DNA of 64,000 nt from Spirochaetaceae bacterium (GTDB lineage: Bacteria > Spirochaetota > Spirochaetia > DSM-2461): the NCBI GenBank assembly GCA_051531975.1, contig JAOPTT010000009.1, positions 352,001-416,000 on the forward strand, read 5' to 3'. A program made the position numbers and the translations under genes. Of this stretch, positions 1 to 14,293 are shown piece by piece. How positions within the stretch are numbered: position 1 is the stretch's first letter; each line of letters begins with the position of its first letter. Under the pieces are notes generated by a model, which had not been told where the DNA came from, did no database searches, and worked only from the letters and a program-made list of their open reading frames with translations.

Positions 1-1675
<1,675 letters not shown>

Positions 1676-1679
<4 letters not shown>

Positions 1680-2569
1680 GACTTCTCCTTTTTAAAAAAT
1701 CCCCAGAAAACAAGCTGAACTATGCTAATTATTAATATTATTAATAATAAAACAATACCAACTGCAGACCCCATTCCTAAATCACCAGATTGAAACCCTT
1801 TTCTATATACATAACCAACCATTGTTAAACCAATATTATTAGGAGAATTTCCTCCCCACAAGATGTAACTCTCTTCAAACATAGAAAATCCACCTAATAT
1901 ACTTATAGTAGTCACAAAAATAATAATTGGTTTTAATAGAGGGAGTGTTATTATACGAAATTTTTGAAAAATATTCGCTCCATCGATATCAGCGGCTTCA
2001 TATAACTCATGGGGTATTGCTTGTAGCCCTGACATAAAATAAACTATATTAATTCCTGTCCAACGCCATAAAGCTGTGATTACAAGTAAAAACATGGCAT
2101 GGTACCTACCAGCCATCAACCAAGACTGAGGTTCCAAATTAAACTTTAACAGTATAGAGTTTATAAATGCACTATCCGATGAGGCAAAAAGTAATCTAAT
2201 GACTGTTCCGGCAACAACAACTGATATTAATGAAGGGATAAAAAATATTGATCTAAATATCTTGCTACCTGCAAAATTATTACTATTTAATATAGTTGCA
2301 AATATGATTGGTATCGGGATTAAAACTGCAATTGTTAATACTGTGTATATAAATGAATTTTTTATAGCAATAAAAAAATGTTCATCATTTAATTGACTAT
2401 AATTTTCTAAACCTATAAACGTTACTTCTCCTGGTACTATATTTTGAAAGCTCATAATAATAGTAGAAAGTAATGGATATAGATAAAAAATAAAAAATGA
2501 AAAAATAAATGGTGCGACAAAAACATAGGGAACTATATCACGCTGCAATTTATTTGATCTTTTTATCAT
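1676..2569 (-). CDS. araP: Carbohydrate ABC transporter permease (AraP/MalF-like)
   Basis: ELYEAADIDGA loop, hydrophobic segments; ATG at 2569 preferred because GAGGTG lies just upstream; 4-nt overlap with next permease. Confidence 0.88.
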
Positions 2570-2587
2570 TGTTACCACCTCAAATTA

Positions 2588-2617
2588 GAAAAGTACCCCT
2601 TTTAATAAGGGATACCT
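2588..2617 (-). terminator. Intra-operon hairpin with U-tract after the binding-protein gene
   Basis: Minus strand gtatccctt-attaa-aaggggtac followed by ttttct. Confidence 0.6.
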
Positions 2618-2627
2618 TATATATATT

Positions 2628-3926
2628 TTAATTTCTTATTTTATCTGCAGCATCTTTTAATGCTTGTGCTGGGGTTTTAGATTGATCACCTAAAGCTTGG
2701 AACATAACATCGTGTTTTATTAAATCCGAAAGTTCTGGTAAGTCAGATGTAATTGTTACAGGATTTATTTCGTCTTTTACTTCTAAAAGAATGCTAAAAA
2801 TATCATCATTTTGAAAGTATTTAGTAAATTTATTTTCTGCTTTTAAAGCTTCATCATTCCATACGGACCATCTTGGAGGATCAAATCCAAGAACAGACCA
2901 AAGTTCAATATTACTTTCCTCTGTTAATTTAGCAAAAGCTAGGAAGTCTTTAGTAATTTGTACATCTTCTGCTTGTTTTGTAACAACTGTAGCTGTTCCA
3001 CCCATACCAGCAGATCGTTTTCCACCTTTCTCCCAACTTGGAAGAGGTTTAATAACAATTTTACCTTCTAGTTCTGGCATGTAATCTGTAAATCGACCCA
3101 TGTACCACATTGGCATAAGTATTGAAGCATAATCTCCAGCGTTCATAGCACCATAATATTCCTCTGAATGATGAAATCCACCAGGCGCTGCTTCAGCAAT
3201 TTTGTTTTTATATATCATATCGTGTAAAAACTCTAAAGTACTGATATTCACACTATTATCTAATGCAACACTTCCATCGGTGTTGAAAAAGTCGGAATTA
3301 CGCTGAGAAATCATTGGCCAGAAAGTCCATTGATCAGTTGTCTCTACAGTTGTCATTAGTTTGCCAGTTACTGACTTAACTTTTGCCCCTGCAACTACAT
3401 AATCATCCCATGTTTCTATATCATCTACATTAACGCCGGCAGCAGTTAACAATTCAACATTGTAATACATCACAGCTGCACCTACATGAAATGGAAGTCC
3501 ATAATAGTTATTATCTTTTGAGTAGATTTGATATCTAGATAGAACTAATTCATCTGCAACCGGATCAATATAGTCATTTAGTGCTTCTAACTGGACTTGC
3601 CCTTTTAAATAATTGGGGAATTTACTAATCTCTATATCTGCTAATGCAGGGGCACCTACACCTGATTGCAATGCAATCAATAGTTTATTATGCATATCAT
3701 CGTATGGAAATGTTTCTGCCATCAATTCTATTTGTCTATCAGGATTTTCAATGTTCCATCTTTCTGCAGCAGCTTCATAAAATTGCTGATGTAATTCATT
3801 AAAAGTCCAAAATGTTACCTCTTGTGCTCCAGTTGCACTAGTACTTTCTTTTTGACCATTACCAAACATAGTAGTTGATAAAAGTAATAATAAAAAAATT
3901 ATTACTAATTGTTTCAAGTTGTTCAT
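2628..3926 (-). CDS. araN: Arabino-oligosaccharide ABC substrate-binding protein (AraN-like)
   Basis: Signal peptide; FWTFNELH, KLLIALQSGVGAPALADIE, PMWYMGRF, SAGMGGT motifs resembling AraN; GGAG RBS. Confidence 0.85.
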   Translation of the reverse strand: MNNLKQLVIIFLLLLLSTTMFGNGQKESTSATGAQEVTFWTFNELHQQFYEAAAERWNIENPDRQIELMAETFPYDDMHNKLLIALQSGVGAPALADIEISKFPNYLKGQVQLEALNDYIDPVADELVLSRYQIYSKDNNYYGLPFHVGAAVMYYNVELLTAAGVNVDDIETWDDYVVAGAKVKSVTGKLMTTVETTDQWTFWPMISQRNSDFFNTDGSVALDNSVNISTLEFLHDMIYKNKIAEAAPGGFHHSEEYYGAMNAGDYASILMPMWYMGRFTDYMPELEGKIVIKPLPSWEKGGKRSAGMGGTATVVTKQAEDVQITKDFLAFAKLTEESNIELWSVLGFDPPRWSVWNDEALKAENKFTKYFQNDDIFSILLEVKDEINPVTITSDLPELSDLIKHDVMFQALGDQSKTPAQALKDAADKIRN

Positions 3927-3971
3927 AACTTCTCCTTAAAATTGGTATGCATATCACATATTCGGGTATGT

Positions 3972-4005
3972 ATCATATATTATGATCATAAAAAGAATGT
4001 GTCAA
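3972..4005 (-). promoter_or_regulatory. sigma70-type promoter of araN with overlapping ATCAT-N5-ATGAT operator
   Basis: Minus strand TTGACA (4005-4000), 17 nt, TAATAT (3982-3977); palindrome ATCATATATTATGAT at 3972-3986 covers the -10. Confidence 0.65.
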
Positions 4006-4074
4006 GCTAAATTAGTTGCAAGAAGGTGTTTTAAGATGTTTATGGTTGGAATTATGTATATTTAGGCTTTTTGT

Positions 4075-4093
4075 ATATCATGAAATATGATAT
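4075..4093. promoter_or_regulatory. Second ATCAT-N5-ATGAT palindromic operator upstream of the regulator
   Basis: ATATCATGAAATATGATAT, same core as 3972-3986. Confidence 0.6.
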
Positions 4094-4158
4094 GGTGTGG
4101 TTAGTTATAGTATGTTATCATAATAACTAATATGGTATACTTTTTAAGTGAGGGAATC

Positions 4159-5076
4159 ATGAAAGGTAAAATAATGCTTATCGATCCTATTAAGGATCTA
4201 AATATAATTAAAGGCTTAGGTTCTGAAATTAGAATAAAAATTCTTAATGAACTAAGACATGGAGAACAGAATATAAATGACCTAGCATCATTATTAGATC
4301 TACCACAATCAACAGTGGCAACCAATATTATCACTCTTGAAAAGGTCGGTCTTGTATCCTCTGAAATAAAAAAAGCAACAAAAGGAAATCAAAAAGTTTG
4401 TAAAAATAACTTTGATGAATATATTATCTCTTTTCAAGATGAAAAGAGTGTTGATAACGAGTCCATTGTTGTTGATATGCCAGTGGGTTTATTTATAGAA
4501 TATGATATATTAGCACCGTGTGGTATGTGTACATCACGAAAAATTGTAGGTTTTTTGGATACACCGGAATCATTTCTTGAACCAGAAAGAATTAGTGCTG
4601 GTCTTTTATGGTTTGAAAAAGGCTTTGTAAAATATCAATTCCCTAACAATTCAATAAATAAAAAAAAGAAAGTTAAAAAACTAGAAGTTATGGTAGAACT
4701 CTCATCAGAAATTCCTGGTACTAACGATAAATGGCTATCTGACATAACCCTTAATATAAATGAAAAAGAAGTAGGGACATGGACAAGTCCTGGAGATTTT
4801 GGAGACAAAAGAGGTAAATACACTCCAGAGTGGTGGAAACTAGAAGGATCACAATATGGCCTTTTAAAAACATGGACAATATCAGAAGAAGGCTCATTTG
4901 TTGATGGGAAGGCTATTTCAAACTTAACAATTGACGATTTAGAATTAGATCTGCATCACTCTATAAAAGTGAAATTCGAAGTAAAAGAAGATGCCGAGAA
5001 TGTTGGAGGTATTAATATCTTTGGAAAAGGTTTTGGTAATTATAACAATGATATTAAACTAATTTTATCATTTTAG
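4159..5076 (+). CDS. ArsR-family winged-HTH transcriptional regulator with C-terminal effector domain
   Basis: GLGSEIRIKILNEL...NINDLASLLDLPQSTVATNIITLEKVGLV HTH; C-terminal WTSPGDFGDKRG and WWKLEGSQYG; ATG 4159 follows GAGGGA. Confidence 0.85.
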   Translation: MKGKIMLIDPIKDLNIIKGLGSEIRIKILNELRHGEQNINDLASLLDLPQSTVATNIITLEKVGLVSSEIKKATKGNQKVCKNNFDEYIISFQDEKSVDNESIVVDMPVGLFIEYDILAPCGMCTSRKIVGFLDTPESFLEPERISAGLLWFEKGFVKYQFPNNSINKKKKVKKLEVMVELSSEIPGTNDKWLSDITLNINEKEVGTWTSPGDFGDKRGKYTPEWWKLEGSQYGLLKTWTISEEGSFVDGKAISNLTIDDLELDLHHSIKVKFEVKEDAENVGGINIFGKGFGNYNNDIKLILSF

Positions 5077-5085
5077 GAGACGGAT

Positions 5086-6420
5086 TTGAACTTAATACAC
5101 ATATATAAAGACTTTGCAGACTCTACTAAATATCTTTTTGTATGTAACAACTTATATGCAAATATGTTAACAAATTTTAAAGATTTTATTTCAGACAGAT
5201 CTATCTTCATAATTAATGATGAAAATACTAAGGTTGCTGCAGGTAATGAATTTATAGAGTTTTGTAAAAAAAACAGTATAAAAGTAAACTCAGAATATAC
5301 TTTCAAAAATATCCCTGAACTTGATGCTTCATATAAAAATGTCGAAATTTTAAAGGAATCCTTATCTAAAACAGATTCCATACCAATAGCAATTGGTAGT
5401 GGAACAATAAATGATTTAGTAAAACGTGCATCATTTGAATTGAATAGAAAATATGGAATTATAGCTACTGCGGCCTCAGTTGACGGGTATGCCTCAGATG
5501 GTGCAGCTATTTTATATAACGGTTTAAAGCAGACTATGCCATGTCCAGCTCCAGAATTTATAGCTGCAGATCCAAAAGTTTTAATAGATGCTCCTATAGA
5601 ATCTAGCTCTTCTGGTTATGCAGATCTTTTAGCTAAGAACCCTGCAGGAGCCGATTGGATTCTAGCAGATATAGTAGGTCTTGATAAAATAAATAGATCA
5701 GCATGGAATCTGATTCAGAAAGATCTGCTAAAGTGGACGACAAACCCAGAGAGGTTAGCTCAAAAAGATGAAGTCATTATTTCAGACCTTATGACAGGAT
5801 TAACCGTTTCTGGTTTTGCAATGCAATTAATGAAAAGATCTAGACCAGTCTCAGGAGCAGAGCATCTTATGTCCCATGTATGGGAGATGGAAAATTTAAT
5901 GTTTAATAACAAACATGTTTCCCACGGTTTTAAAGTTGCTATTGGCTCACTTTCGAGCGTTGCTTTAATGGAAACTATCTTAAATATAAATATATATGAT
6001 TTTGATATAGATAGTGTTATAAAAAACTGGCCTACTTGGGATGTTAGAAAACAAGAGATAATTGATGATTTTTCAGATTTAAATGATATTGAAAATCTAC
6101 TCACTATTAACAAAGAAAAGTATATAAAAAAGGACCAACTATATAAGAGACTTCTGGATATAGTAAATAACTGGGAACATATAAAGTTTGAAGTTAATAA
6201 ACATCTACTACCGTATAAAGAGTTAAAATATAGATTGTTTAAAGCTGGTTGCCCAACTTTACCACAAGATATTGGGTTAACAAAAAGTCACATATTAAGA
6301 ACTTATAAAAAAGCAGGTATGTTAAGAAATAGGTATACGATATTAGACTTTGTTTATGAAATGGGTTTAATGGATAACTGTTTAGAATCTATTTCAAAGT
6401 CAGATATCTATCTAAACTAA
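5086..6420 (+). CDS. egsA: sn-glycerol-1-phosphate dehydrogenase (EgsA/AraM family)
   Basis: AIGSGTINDLVK, TAASVDGYAS, SRPVSGAEHLMSHVWEM, HGFKVAIG motifs; TTG start after AGGAG. Confidence 0.85.
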   Translation: MNLIHIYKDFADSTKYLFVCNNLYANMLTNFKDFISDRSIFIINDENTKVAAGNEFIEFCKKNSIKVNSEYTFKNIPELDASYKNVEILKESLSKTDSIPIAIGSGTINDLVKRASFELNRKYGIIATAASVDGYASDGAAILYNGLKQTMPCPAPEFIAADPKVLIDAPIESSSSGYADLLAKNPAGADWILADIVGLDKINRSAWNLIQKDLLKWTTNPERLAQKDEVIISDLMTGLTVSGFAMQLMKRSRPVSGAEHLMSHVWEMENLMFNNKHVSHGFKVAIGSLSSVALMETILNINIYDFDIDSVIKNWPTWDVRKQEIIDDFSDLNDIENLLTINKEKYIKKDQLYKRLLDIVNNWEHIKFEVNKHLLPYKELKYRLFKAGCPTLPQDIGLTKSHILRTYKKAGMLRNRYTILDFVYEMGLMDNCLESISKSDIYLN

Positions 6421-8240
6421 TTAGTATTACAAGGTATTAGGATTTTAAAACGACAACCTCCCTCTGGCCTATTACTAGCATAAATTTCACCACTGTATTT
6501 TTTAATAATTCCATAAATTACAGATAGACCAAGTCCCATATTGTGTTCATTTTTTTTCTTTGTTGAGAAGAAAGGTAAAAATATATCCTTTGAATACTTT
6601 TCATCTATACCTGTTCCACTATCGTCTATAATTATACATGCATTATTATCCTCTATATCTGTGTGTATATTTATAGTTCCCCCATTTGGCATTGCTTCAA
6701 AACTATTTTTCATTAAATTAAGAAAGACCTGTTTCATCTCATTTCGGCTACTATGAATAAAAAGCTCATCTACAGCTTTATTAAATATTATTTTAATTTT
6801 TTTATGTTTTGCATTAAACCTAATTAAATTAATCAGACTCACAATAAGATCATTAAGATCATAATATTCTAGGGATGAATTGTTGTTATCTGAAAATGAG
6901 ATCAGATTACTCACAATAACTTTAATATCGTGTAATTCCTCTTCTATTTCAGAAATAATTTCCCGGTGTTCTTTGTTTTTTGTACCCATGTTCAGATAAT
7001 TCAGATGGTTATATATTATTTCTAGGGGGTTATTAATTTCATGAGCTACACCAGCTGCTAATAACCCAACAGAAGCTAATTTTTCAGATAAGTTAATCTG
7101 TTCTCTCAATTTTTCTTGTTCAGAAATATCTTCAAATATAATTATATTTCCAATTAAAAATGCACCATCGTATATAGGGAAGGTCTTAAAGTTTATTATC
7201 TTCATCTCTTCTAATAGAGTAAAAGGAATATTATAACCAGAGGACTCTTTTTTACCTATAAATGCATTGTGTAAATCATTTAAAAGGGTTGTGTTTTTTG
7301 AATCTAATAATACTTCTAAATTCTTCCCTCTTAAGTTTTGTCCGCTAATATTAAAAAACTTTTTTGCTGTTTGATTTATTAGTTTTATATTATTTGCATC
7401 ATCTGTAACTATTAGATTTGTTGGAAGTTGTTGTAATATAGCTTCATTATATTTTAGTAGTTGATAAAACTCTTTACTGGTATTTGTTAACTCTTCATCA
7501 CTATTTAACTGAGAATGGCATAATTTAATCAAATTTAATCGATCTATATTATTAACCGAGTCTGTAATAAAAATTTGACCACTTCTTAATATAGAAAAAG
7601 TATGGGCAAAGTTATAGATATCATCTATTTTATGGGATAGACAAAGTATAGACATGTTATCTTTGATTTCATTTTTTAAAAGAGAGGTGATTTTTTTTAA
7701 ATCTGTACCGGATAATTTCTCAAGAGACTCATCCAAAATTAGTAATTTTGGTCTCCTAATTAGTGCTCTAATAATATTTATCACTATTTTTTCTGATAAA
7801 TATAGGTCTTTATACAGTCTGGTTGGATCTAAATCTATCCCATACTCTAAAAGAATCTTTTTCGATTCACTTAACATCCCGCTTTTATTAAGTTTAATGT
7901 TGTTCATAAAATTACATGGAGTAAAAAGATTTTCTGCAATTGTAAAGTTATCTATTAAGAAAATGTCCTGATGAACAGTCTGAATACCTAAAGATTGAGC
8001 CTTGGAAATTGATAAAGCATTTAACTTATTCCCAAAAAATATCATTTCACCACTGTTTACAGGTGAATTCCCAGATAAAATCTCCCCTATATATGTTTTC
8101 CCTGAATCGTGGTCTCCAACTATTGCATGTATTTCTCTAGGATATAGGTCTAGGGATAGGTTTTTTATAACATTGTGACTATCCACTATAAGTTCTATAT
8201 TGTCCAACTGTATAATTGGCTTTAATTTATGATATTCCAT
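6417..8240 (-). CDS. Fusion protein: sugar-ABC ATPase-like domain + PAS-like domain + histidine kinase
   Basis: N-terminal GDHDSGKT (Walker A), TVHQD (Q-loop), LLILDES (Walker B), LSHK (H-loop); PAS-like AILQQLPTNLIVTD...LINQTAKKFF; H-box GVAHEINNPL, N-box LNLMKNSFEAM, DDSGTGI, FLPFFSTK, GLGLS. No transmembrane helix seen. Confidence 0.9.
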   Translation of the reverse strand: MEYHKLKPIIQLDNIELIVDSHNVIKNLSLDLYPREIHAIVGDHDSGKTYIGEILSGNSPVNSGEMIFFGNKLNALSISKAQSLGIQTVHQDIFLIDNFTIAENLFTPCNFMNNIKLNKSGMLSESKKILLEYGIDLDPTRLYKDLYLSEKIVINIIRALIRRPKLLILDESLEKLSGTDLKKITSLLKNEIKDNMSILCLSHKIDDIYNFAHTFSILRSGQIFITDSVNNIDRLNLIKLCHSQLNSDEELTNTSKEFYQLLKYNEAILQQLPTNLIVTDDANNIKLINQTAKKFFNISGQNLRGKNLEVLLDSKNTTLLNDLHNAFIGKKESSGYNIPFTLLEEMKIINFKTFPIYDGAFLIGNIIIFEDISEQEKLREQINLSEKLASVGLLAAGVAHEINNPLEIIYNHLNYLNMGTKNKEHREIISEIEEELHDIKVIVSNLISFSDNNNSSLEYYDLNDLIVSLINLIRFNAKHKKIKIIFNKAVDELFIHSSRNEMKQVFLNLMKNSFEAMPNGGTINIHTDIEDNNACIIIDDSGTGIDEKYSKDIFLPFFSTKKKNEHNMGLGLSVIYGIIKKYSGEIYASNRPEGGCRFKILIPCNTN

Positions 8241-9555
8241 ATTTTTCCAACTTATTATACAAGGTTTTTCTACTAATTTTTAATATTTCAGAAGTTCGTT
8301 TTTTATTATTACCAGTCTTTTGTAAAGTTTTAATTATCAGATTTTTTTCGTTATCTTTTATAATATCAAAGCTGTTTGTAAATTCTTTTTTTCCTAGAAA
8401 AGAGGGTGGTAGTTCATTTAGATCAATAATAGAGTTTGTGCAAATTGCGGCAGCATAGTTGACTATATTTTTTAGTTCCCTAATATTCCCTCTCCAATCA
8501 TTTTCCATCATTGATGATAAAAAGTCATATGTGTATTTTAGCTCTGTAGTACCATTATCTTTTTTAAATTGCTCTAGAAAATGATCTACTAATAGTGGAA
8601 TATCATCTTTTCTCTCCCTTAAGGGAGGTATATATAAAGTTGCAGTGGATAATCTATAATATAGATCTTCTCTAAACTGATTTTTCTTAATTAATTCTTT
8701 TAAGTCCTTATTTGTTGAGGCTATAAATCTAACGTCAATTATTGTCGTTGTTTCAGAACCGATTGGGCGTATTTCACTATTTTGAAGAGTTCTTAATATT
8801 TTAGCCTGGGTTTGTAGAGACATATCTCCTATTTCGTCTAATAACAGGGTTCCACCATTTGCTTTCTCAAAGACCCCTTTATATTTGTTATGAGCCCCAG
8901 TATAAGCACCTTTTTCATGACCAAAAAGTTCATTGTCTAATAAGTTTTCTGGGAACGCTGAACAATTTATTTTAATGATTTTTTGTCCACTTCGTAAGGA
9001 GTTATTATGAATGTATTCGGCTAACCCTTCCTTGCCTGTTCCACTTTCCCCTTGTATTAAAATTGGGAAATCCGTAGTAGATAACTTTTTTGCTTTTAAT
9101 AAAATATCTGTAATTAATTGATTTTCACTTATAATTTGAGGAGACAGGACTTTTACTTTCTGCTTAAGGTTACTATTCTCTATATTAAGTAACCTCATCT
9201 TAGAAGCATTTTCTACAATAATTAATAATTTATTAAACTCTAATGGCTTTTGGATAAAGTCAAATGCACCTAACTTAATAGCTTCCACTGCTATCTCTAT
9301 AGTTCCAAAACCGGTAATCATAATTACTGGAAGATGAAAATCATAATCTTTTATCTGTTTAAGAAGTTCAATACCATCTTCATCACCTAGTGCAACATCT
9401 AATAAAACAACATCGGGATGACTATTTTTTAATTCAATTAGACTTTCTTCACTATTTGTTTTATATGAAACACTGTACCCTATGTGTTCAAAATTTCTAC
9501 AAAGACTTTTACATAGTTTGATATTATCATCTATTATTAAAATTGACTTTTTCAA
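8227..9555 (-). CDS. NtrC-family sigma54-dependent response regulator
   Basis: Receiver (IIDD, VVLLD, FIQKP), AAA+ GESGTGKE, ELFGHEKGAYTGA, LLLDEIG, WRGNIRELKN, Fis-type HTH; likely TTG start at 9555 after AAGGT (ORF track extends to 9630). Confidence 0.93.
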   Translation of the reverse strand: MKKSILIIDDNIKLCKSLCRNFEHIGYSVSYKTNSEESLIELKNSHPDVVLLDVALGDEDGIELLKQIKDYDFHLPVIMITGFGTIEIAVEAIKLGAFDFIQKPLEFNKLLIIVENASKMRLLNIENSNLKQKVKVLSPQIISENQLITDILLKAKKLSTTDFPILIQGESGTGKEGLAEYIHNNSLRSGQKIIKINCSAFPENLLDNELFGHEKGAYTGAHNKYKGVFEKANGGTLLLDEIGDMSLQTQAKILRTLQNSEIRPIGSETTTIIDVRFIASTNKDLKELIKKNQFREDLYYRLSTATLYIPPLRERKDDIPLLVDHFLEQFKKDNGTTELKYTYDFLSSMMENDWRGNIRELKNIVNYAAAICTNSIIDLNELPPSFLGKKEFTNSFDIIKDNEKNLIIKTLQKTGNNKKRTSEILKISRKTLYNKLEKYGIS

Positions 9556-9558
9556 AGT

Positions 9559-9609
9559 TGTTACCTTTTTACACATAAGGACTGTGTACCTATGTGTAAA
9601 ATTTATACA
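9559..9609. promoter_or_regulatory. Two TGT-N9-ACA candidate upstream activating sequences
   Basis: TGTTACCTTTTTACA (9559-9573) and TGTAAAATTTATACA (9595-9609), about 95-145 bp upstream of the -24/-12 element. Confidence 0.5.
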
Positions 9610-9703
9610 CCCACCCAGAGTATCTGTCAAATAAAATATAGTAAAAACGTTAAAACCGGTATATATTGGTGTTTCAGGTATCTTTTAGTATTATTTACAA
9701 TTT

Positions 9704-9719
9704 TGGCACAGCAATTGCA
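9704..9719 (+). promoter_or_regulatory. sigma54 (-24/-12) promoter of the furanose ABC operon
   Basis: TGGCAC-AGCAA-TTGCA with GG-N10-GC spacing, 36 nt before the ATG, next to a bEBP gene. Confidence 0.88.
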
Positions 9720-9755: not shown

Positions 9756-10721
9756 ATGAACAAAATGTTAAAAACATTAGCTACAGTGTTAATGGTGGTT
9801 ATGTGTCTACCAGGTCTTTTTGCTAGCAGTCAAAAAGAAGATGATGGGAAAATTGTAGTAGGTTTCTCACAAATTGGTTCCGAAAGTGCATGGAGAGTTG
9901 CAAATACTGAATCTATCACAAGTGAAGCGAAGAATAGACCAAACATTGATCTAAAGTTTTCTGATGCTCAACAGAAACAAGAAAATCAAATTAAAGCTTT
10001 ACGAACTTTTATTGCACAGGGTGTAGATGTAATAGCATTCTCTCCAGTTGTTGAGACAGGTTTTGAGTCTGTTTTAATAGAAGCAAAAGAAGCTGGGATT
10101 CCTGTAATTTTAACAGATAGAGCTGTTGATGTTAAAGATGATTCTCTGTGGGTTTCTTTTATGGGTTCTGACTTTGTTGAAGAAGGAAGAAAAGCTGCAA
10201 GATGGTTAATAGAAGAAGGTCATACAGATGTTAATATTGTTGAACTTCAAGGTACTGTTGGATCTGCTCCAGCAATAGACAGAAAAAACGGTTTTGAAGA
10301 AGTTATTAAAAGTGAACCTGGAATGAAGATTATTAAAACTCAAAGTGGTAGCTTTACAAGAACTGGTGGAAAAGAGGTTATGGAAGCTTTCTTAAAAGCT
10401 GAAGGTGATAATATCCAAGTTCTATATGCACACAATGACGATATGGCGATTGGTGCAATTCAAGCAATCGAAGAGTATGGTTTAATACCTGGCACTGACA
10501 TTATAATAATCTCTATTGATGCTGTAAGAGGCGCATTTGAAGCTATGGTTGATGGTAAATTAAACTGCACTGTAGAATGTAGTCCACTACTTGGACCTCA
10601 GTTATTTGATGCTGTTGAGGCGTTAATGAGAGGTGAAGAGATTCCTAAAAGAATTGTTACAGAGGAAAGTATTTATCCACAATCTGTTGCTGCAAGCACA
10701 ATTGATAGCAGACAGTACTAA
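9756..10721 (+). CDS. ytfQ: Monosaccharide (furanose) ABC substrate-binding protein, YtfQ-like
   Basis: VGFSQIGSESAWRVANTESI, FSDAQQKQENQIKA, AHNDDMAIGAIQAI motifs. Confidence 0.85.
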   Translation: MNKMLKTLATVLMVVMCLPGLFASSQKEDDGKIVVGFSQIGSESAWRVANTESITSEAKNRPNIDLKFSDAQQKQENQIKALRTFIAQGVDVIAFSPVVETGFESVLIEAKEAGIPVILTDRAVDVKDDSLWVSFMGSDFVEEGRKAARWLIEEGHTDVNIVELQGTVGSAPAIDRKNGFEEVIKSEPGMKIIKTQSGSFTRTGGKEVMEAFLKAEGDNIQVLYAHNDDMAIGAIQAIEEYGLIPGTDIIIISIDAVRGAFEAMVDGKLNCTVECSPLLGPQLFDAVEALMRGEEIPKRIVTEESIYPQSVAASTIDSRQY

Positions 10722-10735
10722 TAAAGGAGATATAA

Positions 10736-12268
10736 ATGCCTGATTCTAAAGCTGAACAACACCAGCTACTGGAAATCAGGGGTTTGAGTAAGAGCTTTCC
10801 AGGTGTGAAAGCTCTTCAATCTGTTGATTTCACCCTAAGGTCTGGAGAAATCCACGCCTTAATGGGTGAAAATGGAGCAGGTAAATCAACCCTGATAAAA
10901 GTACTGACTGGTTTACATAAAAGAGATAGTGGAACAATATTGATGAATGGACAACCATTTGAGTCTTCATCACCACTGGACGCATCACTAAAAGGAATAA
11001 GCACTGTATATCAGGAAGTCAACTTAGTACCAAACCTCTCTGTAGCAGAAAATATATATATTGGAAGACAGCCTACTAAAAGAGGTTTAGTTGATTGGAA
11101 AACAATGAATAACAAAGCCCAGGAAGCCTTAAAAAAACTGGATCTAGATATTGATGTTACAGAGCAGTTATCTTCCTACTCCATGGCAATTCAGCAGATG
11201 ATTGCGATTGCAAGATCTCTTGATATAGACGCTAAGATTTTAATACTGGATGAGCCAACATCAAGTCTAGATCAGGCTGAATGTAAGCAGTTATTCCTTA
11301 TTATGAATAAATTGAAAGTAAATGGCATGGGAATTATTTTCATAACTCATTTTCTTGATCAAGTTTATGAGAACTCAGACTATATTACAGTTTTAAAAAA
11401 TGGACAATTTGTAGGAGACTACCCTATAGAAGAATTACCTAAGATAAAACTTATTTCTAAAATGCTTGGTAAAGAAATTGAGGATATAGGTGATTTATCG
11501 ATCAAGCGTAAAACAACTTATAAAATCGATAGTAAAGAACTTATGAATCTAGAAAATATTGAGCGTAAAGGCGTTTTACATAAACTGAGTATGGATATTA
11601 AAGATGGAGAAATACTTGGACTTGCAGGACTATTAGGTTCTGGTCGAACTGAACTTGCAAAAATACTGTTTGGTATTGATAAACATACAAGTGGATATAT
11701 CAATATCAACGGAAACAAAGTACATCTAAACTCACCAAAAGCTGCAATATCAAACTCAATAGCTTTTTGTCCTGAAGATAGAAAAACAGAAGGGATAATA
11801 CCGGATCTGAGTGTTAGAGAAAATATTGTTCTCGCTCTCCAGGCAAGATATGGAGTTTTTAAAAGTTTATCAAAATATGATCAAGACGGAATTTGCAATA
11901 AATATGTTAAGCTTCTTAAAATTAAAGTATCTGGTTTAGAACAGAAAGCGGGGACTCTAAGCGGGGGGAATCAACAAAAATTAATTTTGGCCAGATGGTT
12001 AGCAATGGATCCAAAACTATTAATCCTGGATGAACCAACTAGGGGCATCGATGTAGGAGCAAAAGCTGAGATTGAAAAAATTATACATAAAATGAGTACT
12101 GAAAATAGATCTGTTCTGTTTATCTCTTCGGAACTAGAAGAGATTACAAGAATATGTTCAAGAGCAGTAATATTGAGAGATAGAAAAAAAATTGGAGAGT
12201 TATATGGTGATGATTTGTCAGCATCAAATATAATGAACCATATAGCTAAAGGAGTTCATCAGATATGA
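10736..12268 (+). CDS. ytfR: Sugar ABC ATPase with two NBDs (CUT2, YtfR-like)
   Basis: GENGAGKST, ILILDEPT, LSGGNQQK, DEPTRGIDVGAK. Confidence 0.88.
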   Translation: MPDSKAEQHQLLEIRGLSKSFPGVKALQSVDFTLRSGEIHALMGENGAGKSTLIKVLTGLHKRDSGTILMNGQPFESSSPLDASLKGISTVYQEVNLVPNLSVAENIYIGRQPTKRGLVDWKTMNNKAQEALKKLDLDIDVTEQLSSYSMAIQQMIAIARSLDIDAKILILDEPTSSLDQAECKQLFLIMNKLKVNGMGIIFITHFLDQVYENSDYITVLKNGQFVGDYPIEELPKIKLISKMLGKEIEDIGDLSIKRKTTYKIDSKELMNLENIERKGVLHKLSMDIKDGEILGLAGLLGSGRTELAKILFGIDKHTSGYININGNKVHLNSPKAAISNSIAFCPEDRKTEGIIPDLSVRENIVLALQARYGVFKSLSKYDQDGICNKYVKLLKIKVSGLEQKAGTLSGGNQQKLILARWLAMDPKLLILDEPTRGIDVGAKAEIEKIIHKMSTENRSVLFISSELEEITRICSRAVILRDRKKIGELYGDDLSASNIMNHIAKGVHQI

Positions 12269-13323
12269 AAAAAGGATTAAAAATTAAATTTTTAAAGAAC
12301 TTAAAGCCGGATTCCCGATTAGTATATCCACTCATGGCGCTTCTAGCTATCCTTCTATTTAATCTTATTTTTACAGAAGGTTTTTTTCATATAGAAATAA
12401 AAAATGGACACCTTTTTGGATCATTGATTGATATTTTGAATCGAGGGGCTCCAGTAATTTTATTAACTATTGGAATGACATTAGTTTATGCAACAGGAGG
12501 TGTAGATCTATCTGTAGGTGCCGTTATGGCAATCTCTGGGGCTCTTGCTGCTCAGTTGATCAGACCTGACTATGTTAAAGGAATACTTGAATACGGGAGT
12601 CAAACTTCAATAGTGATTGTATTATTAATTCCTATTTTATTATCCATATTATTAGGGTTATGGAATGGTTTCCTTGTAGCATATATAGGAGTACAACCAA
12701 TTATTGCAACCCTTATTTTAATGACAGCAGGCCGTGGAATTGCTCAGTTAATTACCCGTGGGCAAACTATAGTGTTTGAGCATGAACCATTTCAGTTTGT
12801 TGGTAGTGGATTTCTTTTTGGAGTTCCATTTCCAGTTATTATTGTAATAATAATTGCAGTCTTAACATGGTTAATAACTAGAAAAACTTCTTTAGGACTG
12901 TTTATAGAAGCAACTGGATCCAATTCACGTGCCAGTCACTATATGGGATTAAGCGTTAAACTAATAAAATCAATAACTTATGCCTTTTCAGGTTTATGTG
13001 CAGGACTAGCAGGAATAATTGTATGTTCTGATATTAGAGCTGCAGATGCAAATAATGCAGGACTCTTTTTAGAACTGGATGCAATAGCTTCAGTAATAAT
13101 TGGTGGAACTATAAATGGTGGAAGATTTTCAATATTAGGATCAATAATTGGAGCACTGATTATACAAGCTCTATCAACAACTATTATTACAAGAGGTATT
13201 CCTCCACAAGTTGTTCTGGTTTTCAAAGCTTTTATTATTATTATTGTAGCTTTGATACAATCTGAAAAATTACGAGAGAAGATTAAACAACATTTTCCTA
13301 AAGGAGAAAAAAATGAAGCTTAA
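12265..13323 (+). CDS. ytfT: Sugar ABC permease (YtfT-like)
   Basis: GGVDLSVGAVMAI, ADANNAGLFLELDAIA; hydrophobic. Confidence 0.85.
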   Translation: MKKGLKIKFLKNLKPDSRLVYPLMALLAILLFNLIFTEGFFHIEIKNGHLFGSLIDILNRGAPVILLTIGMTLVYATGGVDLSVGAVMAISGALAAQLIRPDYVKGILEYGSQTSIVIVLLIPILLSILLGLWNGFLVAYIGVQPIIATLILMTAGRGIAQLITRGQTIVFEHEPFQFVGSGFLFGVPFPVIIVIIIAVLTWLITRKTSLGLFIEATGSNSRASHYMGLSVKLIKSITYAFSGLCAGLAGIIVCSDIRAADANNAGLFLELDAIASVIIGGTINGGRFSILGSIIGALIIQALSTTIITRGIPPQVVLVFKAFIIIIVALIQSEKLREKIKQHFPKGEKNEA

Positions 13324-14293
13324 ACTCAACCAAAAGAACATACCTCTTTTTACAACTTTTCTAGTTTTTTTAATTATTTATGCTTCTGGATCAATATTAT
13401 ACAGTGGGTTCTTTTCATTAAGGGTTTTTATTAATTTATTTATAGACAACGCTTTTGTAGGTATAATTGCTGTGGGTATGACTTTTGTTATAATATCCGG
13501 TGGAATAGATCTCTCTGTAGGTTCCTTGGTTGCGTTAACAGGAGTATTAAGTGCAAATTTACTGGCCAATACATCATTAAGCCCTATTTTTGTTATATTA
13601 ATATGCCTCTCTTTTGGTGCTTTATTTGGCTTTACAATGGGATATTTAATACATTATTTAGAGCTACCACCATTTTTAGTAACTCTAGTTGGGATGTTTT
13701 TGGCTAGAGGGTTGTCCTTTGTTATCAGTCTGGACTCTGTTCCAATTCGTGATGAACTATTTCTTAAATTATCACGTATGGCAATCCCACTAGGGAAAGG
13801 TGTCAAAATTCCTTTTATTGCAATTGTCTTTATTTTTATAGTTATACTAGGGGTATATATACTGCATAACACCAAATTTGGACGGAACGTATATGCTATT
13901 GGTGGTAATGAAAAATCAGCTCTTTTAATGGGTTTGCCAATTGGTAAAACTAAAATAATGATTTATACCTTAAACAGTACATTTTGTGCATTAGGTGGAT
14001 TGGTATATTCTATATATACATTGGCTGGTTATCCATTAGCAGGAACAGGTCTTGAACTGGATGTTATTGCTGCAGTCGTTATAGGTGGAACATTATTAAC
14101 TGGTGGAATGGGATTTGTAGAAGGAACATTAATCGGTATTTTAATACTAGGACTTATACAGACAATTATTATTTTTCAGGGTAATTTAAGTTCTTGGTGG
14201 ACCAAAATATTTATAGGAGTTCTTATATCAATGTTTATTCTACTTCAAAGATATTTATCAACTAGAACAATAAAAAAAAAGTCAGATAATTAA
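13313..14293 (+). CDS. yjfF: Sugar ABC permease (YjfF-like)
   Basis: NLFIDNAF, GGIDLSVGS, LSSWWTKI motifs. Confidence 0.85.
   Translation: MKLKLNQKNIPLFTTFLVFLIIYASGSILYSGFFSLRVFINLFIDNAFVGIIAVGMTFVIISGGIDLSVGSLVALTGVLSANLLANTSLSPIFVILICLSFGALFGFTMGYLIHYLELPPFLVTLVGMFLARGLSFVISLDSVPIRDELFLKLSRMAIPLGKGVKIPFIAIVFIFIVILGVYILHNTKFGRNVYAIGGNEKSALLMGLPIGKTKIMIYTLNSTFCALGGLVYSIYTLAGYPLAGTGLELDVIAAVVIGGTLLTGGMGFVEGTLIGILILGLIQTIIIFQGNLSSWWTKIFIGVLISMFILLQRYLSTRTIKKKSDN

Follow-up and report, generated by a model that had tools for sequence, protein, structure and literature searches.

Background

Histidine kinases that take their cue from a transporter have been described in several forms. In the cited portions of two papers, BceS, a membrane protein that contacts BceB via transmembrane helices, senses through the ABC transporter BceAB and controls that transporter's genes (PMC4513084, PMC10314905). 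In PstSCAB-PhoU-PhoR, a kinase that has no periplasmic sensor reads the conformations of an importer (PMC5775613). This system needs an adaptor, PhoU, which the kinase described below is proposed to do without. PhoR itself has a PAS domain, is not known to carry a nucleotide-binding domain (NBD) and is membrane-anchored. In the MalK-MalT system the importer NBD is the regulatory interface for its own regulon; there a working motor binds a separate activator, whereas the kinase studied here has a second NBD, not a motor, as part of its own chain. CUT2-type sugar-binding proteins control the kinases of XylFII-LytS and ChvE-VirA, with LytS controlling xylFGH (PMC8050422). In that account the binding protein is sensed via an extracellular domain, and the kinase studied here has none, although the LytS system parallels it in output. 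The transporter-kinase pairs listed in the portion used of a further source include DctA-DcuS and BceAB-S, with no NBD-input kinase among them (PMC11109136).

The second point of reference is the motor of the CUT2 sugar importers, a tandem ATPase (YtfR, RbsA, AraG, XylG, MglA). Its N-half, like the NBD of our kinase, has an intact Walker A, Q-loop, Walker B and H-switch together with a degenerate signature, a degenerate D-loop and a C-terminal helix. The asymmetry of the two halves has been described for RbsA and NupO, where, in the excerpt cited, the degenerate signature accompanies a second Walker A that lacks its Lys (PMC11466899). Unlike these ATPases, the fusion has no second NBD but a PAS domain and a kinase instead, and forms its own clade; unlike the N-halves, its NBD has His for Asn in Walker A and a new, conserved D-loop. 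The combination is carried in databases only under automatic names, and searches of a mostly open-access literature listed no paper on an NBD-PAS-kinase fusion. Here we present evidence that the fusion family is real, conserved and apparently undescribed.

Results

The kinase and its domains

The window, a stretch of 64,000 nucleotides from a Spirochaetaceae genome, carries on its minus strand a kinase gene with the following layout.

6417..8240, minus strand: NBD-PAS-HisKA-HATPase_c histidine kinase, 607 aa (translation, Pfam)
7506..8240, minus strand: CUT2 N-half-like ABC NBD, aa 1-245, predicted input domain (Pfam, NCBIfam, BLASTP, tree)
7509..7565, minus strand: NBD C-terminal strand and helix, aa 226-244 (conservation, spacing)
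7125..7472, minus strand: PAS domain, aa 257-372, including its conserved N-cap helix (Pfam, conservation)
6429..7100, minus strand: AtoS/NtrB-like kinase core (Pfam, NCBIfam, invariant residues)
7041-7043, minus strand: phospho-acceptor H400 (Pfam, alignment)

The gene is one uninterrupted reading frame, and at least 106 relatives among the best 120 matches have the same N-terminus, a few of them as contig-edge fragments, so the kinase is neither a chance product nor an assembly chimera. Pfam places ABC_tran at residues 26-172, PAS at 266-342, HisKA at 392-452 and HATPase_c at 500-604, the ABC_tran match (PF00005) reaching an E-value of 1e-15 and 58.9 bits against a cut-off of 25. Among NCBIfam models, the N-terminal part best matches the first halves of those for YtfR, XylG, LsrA, GguA, AraG, RbsA, AlsA and MglA, with the YtfR model on top (E 1.3e-33). 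By BLASTP, the similarity to the neighbouring YtfR is 28% identity over 228 aa for the N-half (E 5e-21) and 26% for the C-half (E 6e-6), and a sequence search matched the NBD to solved NBD structures with E about 1e-13. The agreement of Pfam, NCBIfam and BLASTP bears out an earlier note, made from the sequence alone, which had read the input as a single CUT2 N-half-like NBD; all the motifs that it quoted are present in the translation and in register with YtfR. The protein is not itself a tandem CUT2 ATPase: its single NBD is followed by PAS and kinase domains rather than by a C-half with an intact signature, and the YtfR model scores 116 bits against a cut-off of 850.

A hydropathy scan revealed no transmembrane segment (top 19-residue value 1.26) and no membrane or extracellular sensor; a value of 1.9 is reached by one of 107 relatives. 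The catalytic part is conventional, with H400, N508, N512, D540 and G542, in HisKA and the N and G boxes of HATPase_c, invariant in 97 of 97 kinases, which assigns the protein by its sequence to the class I (HisKA) NtrB/AtoS-like histidine kinases.

The kinase gene overlaps that of a response regulator, and both diverge from a ytfQ-R-T-yjfF operon (9756-14293).

8227..9630, minus strand: NtrC-type sigma-54 response regulator (REC-AAA-HTH8), cognate, overlapping the kinase start (Pfam, NCBIfam)
9559..9575, plus strand: first candidate enhancer box, TGT-N11-ACA, 145 bp before the -24 element (motif)
9593..9609, plus strand: second candidate enhancer box, TGT-N11-ACA, 111 bp before the -24 element (motif)
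9704..9719, plus strand: sigma-54 promoter of the -24/-12 type; no other site in the window matches the consensus exactly (motif)
9756..10721, plus strand: YtfQ-like sugar-binding protein, under the NCBIfam equivalog cut-off (NCBIfam)
10736..12268, plus strand: YtfR-like tandem CUT2 ATPase (NCBIfam)
12265..13323, plus strand: YtfT-like permease (NCBIfam)
13313..14293, plus strand: YjfF permease, above the NCBIfam cut-off (NCBIfam)

The adjacent REC-AAA-HTH activator, the -24/-12 promoter, the upstream boxes and an rpoN gene in the genome mark the pair as a sigma-54 two-component system; the acceptor Asp of the regulator is present in 69 of 69 relatives. The true start of the regulator probably lies lower than 9630. 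The system differs from a Bce-type module in that its kinase lacks a transmembrane segment and its permeases are of the BPD_transp_2 family (Pfam). On the other side, the region abutting the kinase 3' end (825-6420) holds a CUT1 sugar importer (825-3926, minus strand), a gene resembling that of glycerol-1-phosphate dehydrogenase (5086-6420) and, between them, an ArsR-HTH protein whose C-terminal part is long (4132-5076).

Distribution and origin of the fusion

Most of the best 150 matches among 50%-identity representatives were full-length, and a Pfam check of ten representatives found ABC_tran together with a kinase domain in eight, the other two being fragments. Named sources are mainly spirochaetes, plus KSB3 and a few others. 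Altogether, 135 fusions from genomes and metagenomes were collected, which make up 125 clusters at 90%. In a scan of a genome collection, full-length alignment mostly picked up ordinary kinases (full-length matches at 5 of 80 loci), and both a junction query and an N-terminal alignment outperformed it. The junction query placed fusions in at least 17 of 38 order genomes and at least 14 of 401 phylum genomes, tallies that are lower bounds since it missed both subfamily-2 paralogues of the window's genome; up to 10 candidates were scored per genome. There are three fusions in this genome and up to four in those of relatives. The two subfamily-2 paralogues (L264, G000:C9:282436-284280; L265, G000:C3:76788-78584) both lack the H-switch His; one adjoins an AraFGH-like importer and the other a different CUT2 importer. 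Two irregular entries were also seen: a fusion split into 498-aa and 120-aa frames by a frameshift or assembly error (L134:3038-4845, the same as L013), and an 851-aa entry, probably an assembly artefact, in which the PAS-HisKA stretch is duplicated (P0213).

The fusion NBDs divide into two subfamilies of 82 and 31 sequences. In an IQ-TREE quick search on 65 rows, all of them form one clade (SH-aLRT 99), nested among the monosaccharide N-halves and apart from YtfR, the C-halves and single-domain ATPases. The idea that the domain is a recent copy of the neighbouring YtfR was rejected, as the fusions form a single clade away from it. The earlier note had proposed that a PAS-kinase replaced the second NBD of a tandem ATPase, to be judged by phylogeny against the N-halves of YtfR, RbsA and MglA. 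The grouping with N-halves is upheld and the replacement is plausible, but a constrained tree with the N-halves as one clade was not rejected (p-AU 0.55), so that a sister placement fits as well as nesting. Descent from an N-half is favoured because the broken signature is shared, a degeneracy that in RbsA and NupO accompanies the Lys-less second Walker A (PMC11466899).

Nucleotide-site motifs

The NBD motifs of the window kinase are located as follows.

8094..8117, minus strand: Walker A, aa 42-49, with K48 and T49 kept and G45 changed to Asp (alignment)
7968..7970, minus strand: Q-loop Q91 (alignment)
7788..7805, minus strand: signature position, aa 146-151, degenerate and without LSGGQ, a trait shared with CUT2 N-halves (BLASTP, alignment)
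7710..7748, minus strand: Walker B (D170, E171) with a D-loop particular to the family, aa 165-177 (alignment)
7632..7634, minus strand: H-switch H203 (alignment)

In the BLASTP register the signature position spans residues 145-151, and the trailing helix lies at 232-240. The Lys, Asp-Glu and His that the earlier note reported as kept are indeed there (K48, D170/E171, H203), as are T49 and Q91. Two deviations had escaped it: V19, which leaves the A-loop without its aromatic residue, and G45D.

Across the family, all 113 fusion NBDs have K48, S/T49 and D170, Q91 is found in 112, E171 in 104 and H203 in 98, and LSGGQ occurs in none of the 113. The Walker residues are thus conserved among homologous fusions, a point on which the earlier note had staked its reading. 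Most of the family, to judge from these residues, retains the full nucleotide site of an N-half. At Walker A position 44, His is present in 107 of 113 fusions and Asn in 94 of 94 N-halves, an Asn that we take, from ABC structures, to face the partner D-loop. The fusion D-loop was said to have drifted, a description that does not hold, since its replacement is conserved (L in 98, E in 86, K in 90 and L in 100 of 107 fusion rows, comprising the window protein and the 106 relatives) and Asp was already rare in the N-halves (at most 9 of 94; T 31, S 23, G 10). Similarly, the view of the domain as a partly degenerate half was right as to the degeneracy, but the broken signature and the loss of the D-loop Asp were inherited from N-halves rather than newly acquired.

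The clade of the window protein (n=15), mostly linked to YtfQ-type importers, stands apart. There the A-loop aromatic is present in 0 of 15, E171 in 6 and H203 in 11, against 67/67, 67/67 and 65/67 in the rest of subfamily 1 and 94/94 for each in the N-halves. By this pattern the phosphate and Mg contacts are universal, and adenine stacking and catalysis appear dispensable in the window's clade. The idea that orphan kinases lose catalytic residues was discarded: the loss of E171 spans the whole YtfQ-linked clade, linked members included, and one apparent orphan has an operon elsewhere in its genome (L172, below).

The spacing from H203 to L237 is identical in 69 of 69 sequences, that from L237 to N265 is 28-30 aa in 67 of 69, and that from D371 to H400 is again identical in all 69. 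The C-terminal strand and helix are the best-conserved part of the NBD, and the PAS N-cap is also highly conserved; their near-fixed spacing would fit mechanical coupling between the two.

Linkage to CUT2 importers and promoters

Linkage was scored in the 61 clusters whose flanks extend for 5 kb or more in either direction, with a neighbour limit of 7 kb. A CUT2 ATPase and permease lay within this distance in 58 of 61, and a sigma-54 activator adjoined the kinase in 60 of 61. In the window's own genome, CUT2 ATPase and permease genes accompany 3 of 3 fusions as compared to 4 of 101 other kinase-like ORFs. The partner importers are of many CUT2 types, so that what they have in common is the transporter class.

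Three clusters, L115, L168 and L172, depart from this pattern. In L115 a binding protein and permease are present and the ATPase is absent between regulator and permease; it is the only locus found with binding protein, permease and kinase in the absence of the ATPase. Its regulator is cut to 219 aa (L115:10685-11366), and the locus seems to have undergone a deletion. Around L168 and L172, the 7 kb on either side contain no CUT2 genes, but another contig of the L172 genome carries a ytfQRT-yjfF-like operon; in the G408 genome (90% complete), no YtfT-like operon was seen in the three regions examined.

Other arrangements were noted in passing. A lone CUT2 permease gene, without adjacent binding protein or ATPase, converges on the kinase 3' end in four loci (L205:10323-11363, L228:2046-3008, L231:10373-11335, L226:11800-12753) and is possibly a second or dedicated sensor subunit. 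The L205 copy is 75% identical to the operon permease and the L228 and L231 copies are 80% identical; these three paralogues may be dedicated sensor subunits. Two complete regulator-kinase pairs lie near each other, with CUT2 importers adjoining, in L014:4947-11797, where they are back to back, and in L193:1-11815. A gap of ~1.2-1.5 kb between binding protein and ATPase in L137-L139, L194, L208, L211, L216, L242, L244, L245 and L252 may hold a conserved extra gene.

At the window locus the -24/-12 promoter and the two candidate enhancer boxes precede ytfQ, and rpoN is present in the genome. A sigma-54 site was found upstream of 47 of 69 transporter operons on the sense strand and upstream of none of the 69 on the antisense strand. 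Of 41 subfamily-1 promoters, 31 carry the enhancer box (shuffle mean 2.5, maximum 8), compared with only 1 of 15 in subfamily 2. These data strongly indicate that the predicted output of the system is the transporter operon. As the boxes fall where the divergent regulator gene probably begins (9553-9609), the regulator may also repress itself.

Co-divergence with permease and ATPase

Co-divergence was assessed in the 69 of 125 clusters with complete kinase, regulator, ATPase, permease and binding protein, leaving aside L003, L014 and L193 as ambiguous; the correlations given are for the 49 complete subfamily-1 systems. The presumed permease-facing groove was set beforehand as the Q-loop and signature-helix segment (aa 84-112 and 136-163). 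Its divergence follows that of the neighbouring permease with r 0.50, compared to 0.10 for the PAS domain and 0.20 for the kinase core; the core follows the regulator with r 0.73. The groove signal persists with one system per cluster (r 0.46), without the YtfQ clade (partial r 0.32) and when a second odd clade is left out as well (0.25). For the whole NBD, leaving out the YtfQ clade abolishes the permease signal (partial r 0.04, p 0.32), and Mantel p-values such as this ignore kinship, although kin are not independent. Along the permease, the windows in best agreement with the groove fall in the EAA loop, aa 200-239 (0.29, 0.26), but the PAS-kinase control has its maximum in the same region, at aa 215-239 (0.28).

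At the residue level, kinase Arg is present in 14 of 14 members of the two clades whose permease lacks the basic EAA residue and whose N-half has Arg at 158; it also occurs in 9 of 35 others, and the independent pairs number just one to three. Six tests of convergence on the groove of the cognate ATPase, with a column set that we took from MalK/BtuD on the assumption that it applies here, were not significant (p 0.09-0.91), and there were too few independent pairs. Taken together, co-divergence of the predicted permease-binding face with the neighbouring permease is no more than suggestive.

Discussion

The fusions are nearly always found beside a CUT2 importer and an activator, and the kinase therefore probably plugs into the importer, switching uptake genes on. 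We put the probability that its NBD docks on its own transporter at about 0.65. More specifically, and at somewhat less than even odds, the NBD would dock as a decoy ATPase on the permease coupling helices, reading the importer from its cytoplasmic side. The kinase dimer, whose geometry is assumed, would present two N-half-like NBDs to its cognate permease (YtfT/YjfF), binding at the coupling helices, the usual site of YtfR. Sugar-loaded binding protein would shift the permease conformation, the NBD pair would open or close in response, and the C-terminal NBD helix of near-fixed length would relay the change to the PAS dimer and the kinase. The kinase would then phosphorylate the adjacent activator, which would bind the two TGT-N11-ACA boxes and turn on the sigma-54 promoter of ytfQ-R-T-yjfF. 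Nucleotide would serve as a structural ligand, its turnover dispensable at least in the window's clade. In keeping with this model, LSGGQ is absent from every fusion, so that two copies of the kinase cannot pair into a canonical hydrolytic site, given the asymmetry described for CUT2 ATPases (PMC11466899). Control could be sugar-activated or released from an idle transporter, and the sugar would be of the furanose type, from the likeness to YtfQ. A more speculative extension is that the importer becomes a receptor by motor swap, the binding protein and permease dimer accepting either the tandem ATPase, for transport, or the kinase dimer, for signalling.

Such a system would work like BceAB-BceS or PstSCAB-PhoU-PhoR, but it belongs to neither of these, nor to the XylFII-LytS type. 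With BceS it would share the principle of a transporter-read kinase, here proposed from sequence; unlike BceS, it is predicted to be soluble, carries an NBD and serves a sugar importer and a sigma-54 activator. Several points weigh against docking. The architecture, motif conservation, linkage, promoter and boxes can be read directly from the DNA, but regulators generally sit beside their target operon, so linkage, promoter and co-divergence need no contact. Moreover, the retention of E171 and H203 outside the window's clade appears to exceed the needs of a pure dock, and kinase and YtfR would be rivals for the same permease.

A rather unlikely alternative is that the kinase is a free cytoplasmic sensor with no transporter contact, its NBD binding ATP/ADP, or its NBD or PAS binding an intracellular sugar or metabolite. 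The invariance of K48, S/T49 and D170, the PAS domain itself and the isolated L168 and L172 kinases would all suit it, the last weakened by the operon elsewhere in the L172 genome. However, an energy gauge needs neither duplication per transporter nor a tie to one transporter class, and PAS divergence does not follow that of binding protein or permease (r about 0.1). Furthermore, clade-wide loss of the adenine-stacking A-loop, along with frequent loss of the catalytic Glu and, in the window protein, G45D, weakens an ATP/ADP meter for the window's clade. The earlier note had offered nucleotide sensing or docking for a domain that does not power transport, with ATP/ADP sensing as an alternative. 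A non-motor nucleotide-binding domain stands, given residues under selection; context and the A-loop loss favour docking over ATP/ADP sensing, and argue against the latter in the window's clade.

We also consider it unlikely that the kinase is a flux sensor whose NBD contacts YtfR in the working transporter and follows its ATP cycle, for example by pairing with the C-half. The C-half could supply the intact LSGG signature absent from the fusion (LSGGN in 81 of 81 C-halves). Outside the YtfQ clade, subfamily 1 has the full N-half catalytic set, so a catalytic partner remains conceivable there, and the raw NBD correlation is higher with C-halves (0.45) than with N-halves (0.21). Once the YtfQ clade is left out, nothing remains of this excess (partial r 0.14, then 0.07), and we dropped C-half pairing as a reading of the distance correlations, the signal depending on one clade. 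In addition, a covalently tethered N-half would presumably need displacing, the Walker A Asn has become His in nearly all fusions, and the catalytic Glu is absent in 9 of 15 members of the window's clade. That the NBD is a structural relic or simple membrane or dimer anchor with no signalling role, as the erosion of nucleotide residues in the window's clade might hint, is highly improbable given its invariant Walker residues, near-fixed linker spacing and conservation about like that of the kinase core (median pairwise identity 0.43 vs 0.47 across the family).

Known transporter-coupled kinases use membrane contacts or adaptors. If docking on the importer holds, a captured copy of the motor's docking domain would serve instead, a direct way to read ABC-importer conformation; with motor swap, two signature-less NBDs on coupling helices would give transmembrane sugar sensing without a dedicated membrane receptor. 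The family is large, with up to four members per genome, each with a different sugar importer, and may be a main monosaccharide-sensing route in free-living spirochaetes. Its natural variants separate nucleotide binding from hydrolysis. A sequence search of the PDB found no solved CUT2 permease structure, so a kinase-permease complex would be informative in its own right. Finally, Atlas clusters from Actinomycetota contain proteins of 826-852 aa with an ABC_tran, GAF and HisKA architecture, which suggests that an NBD has been recruited as the input of a kinase a second time.
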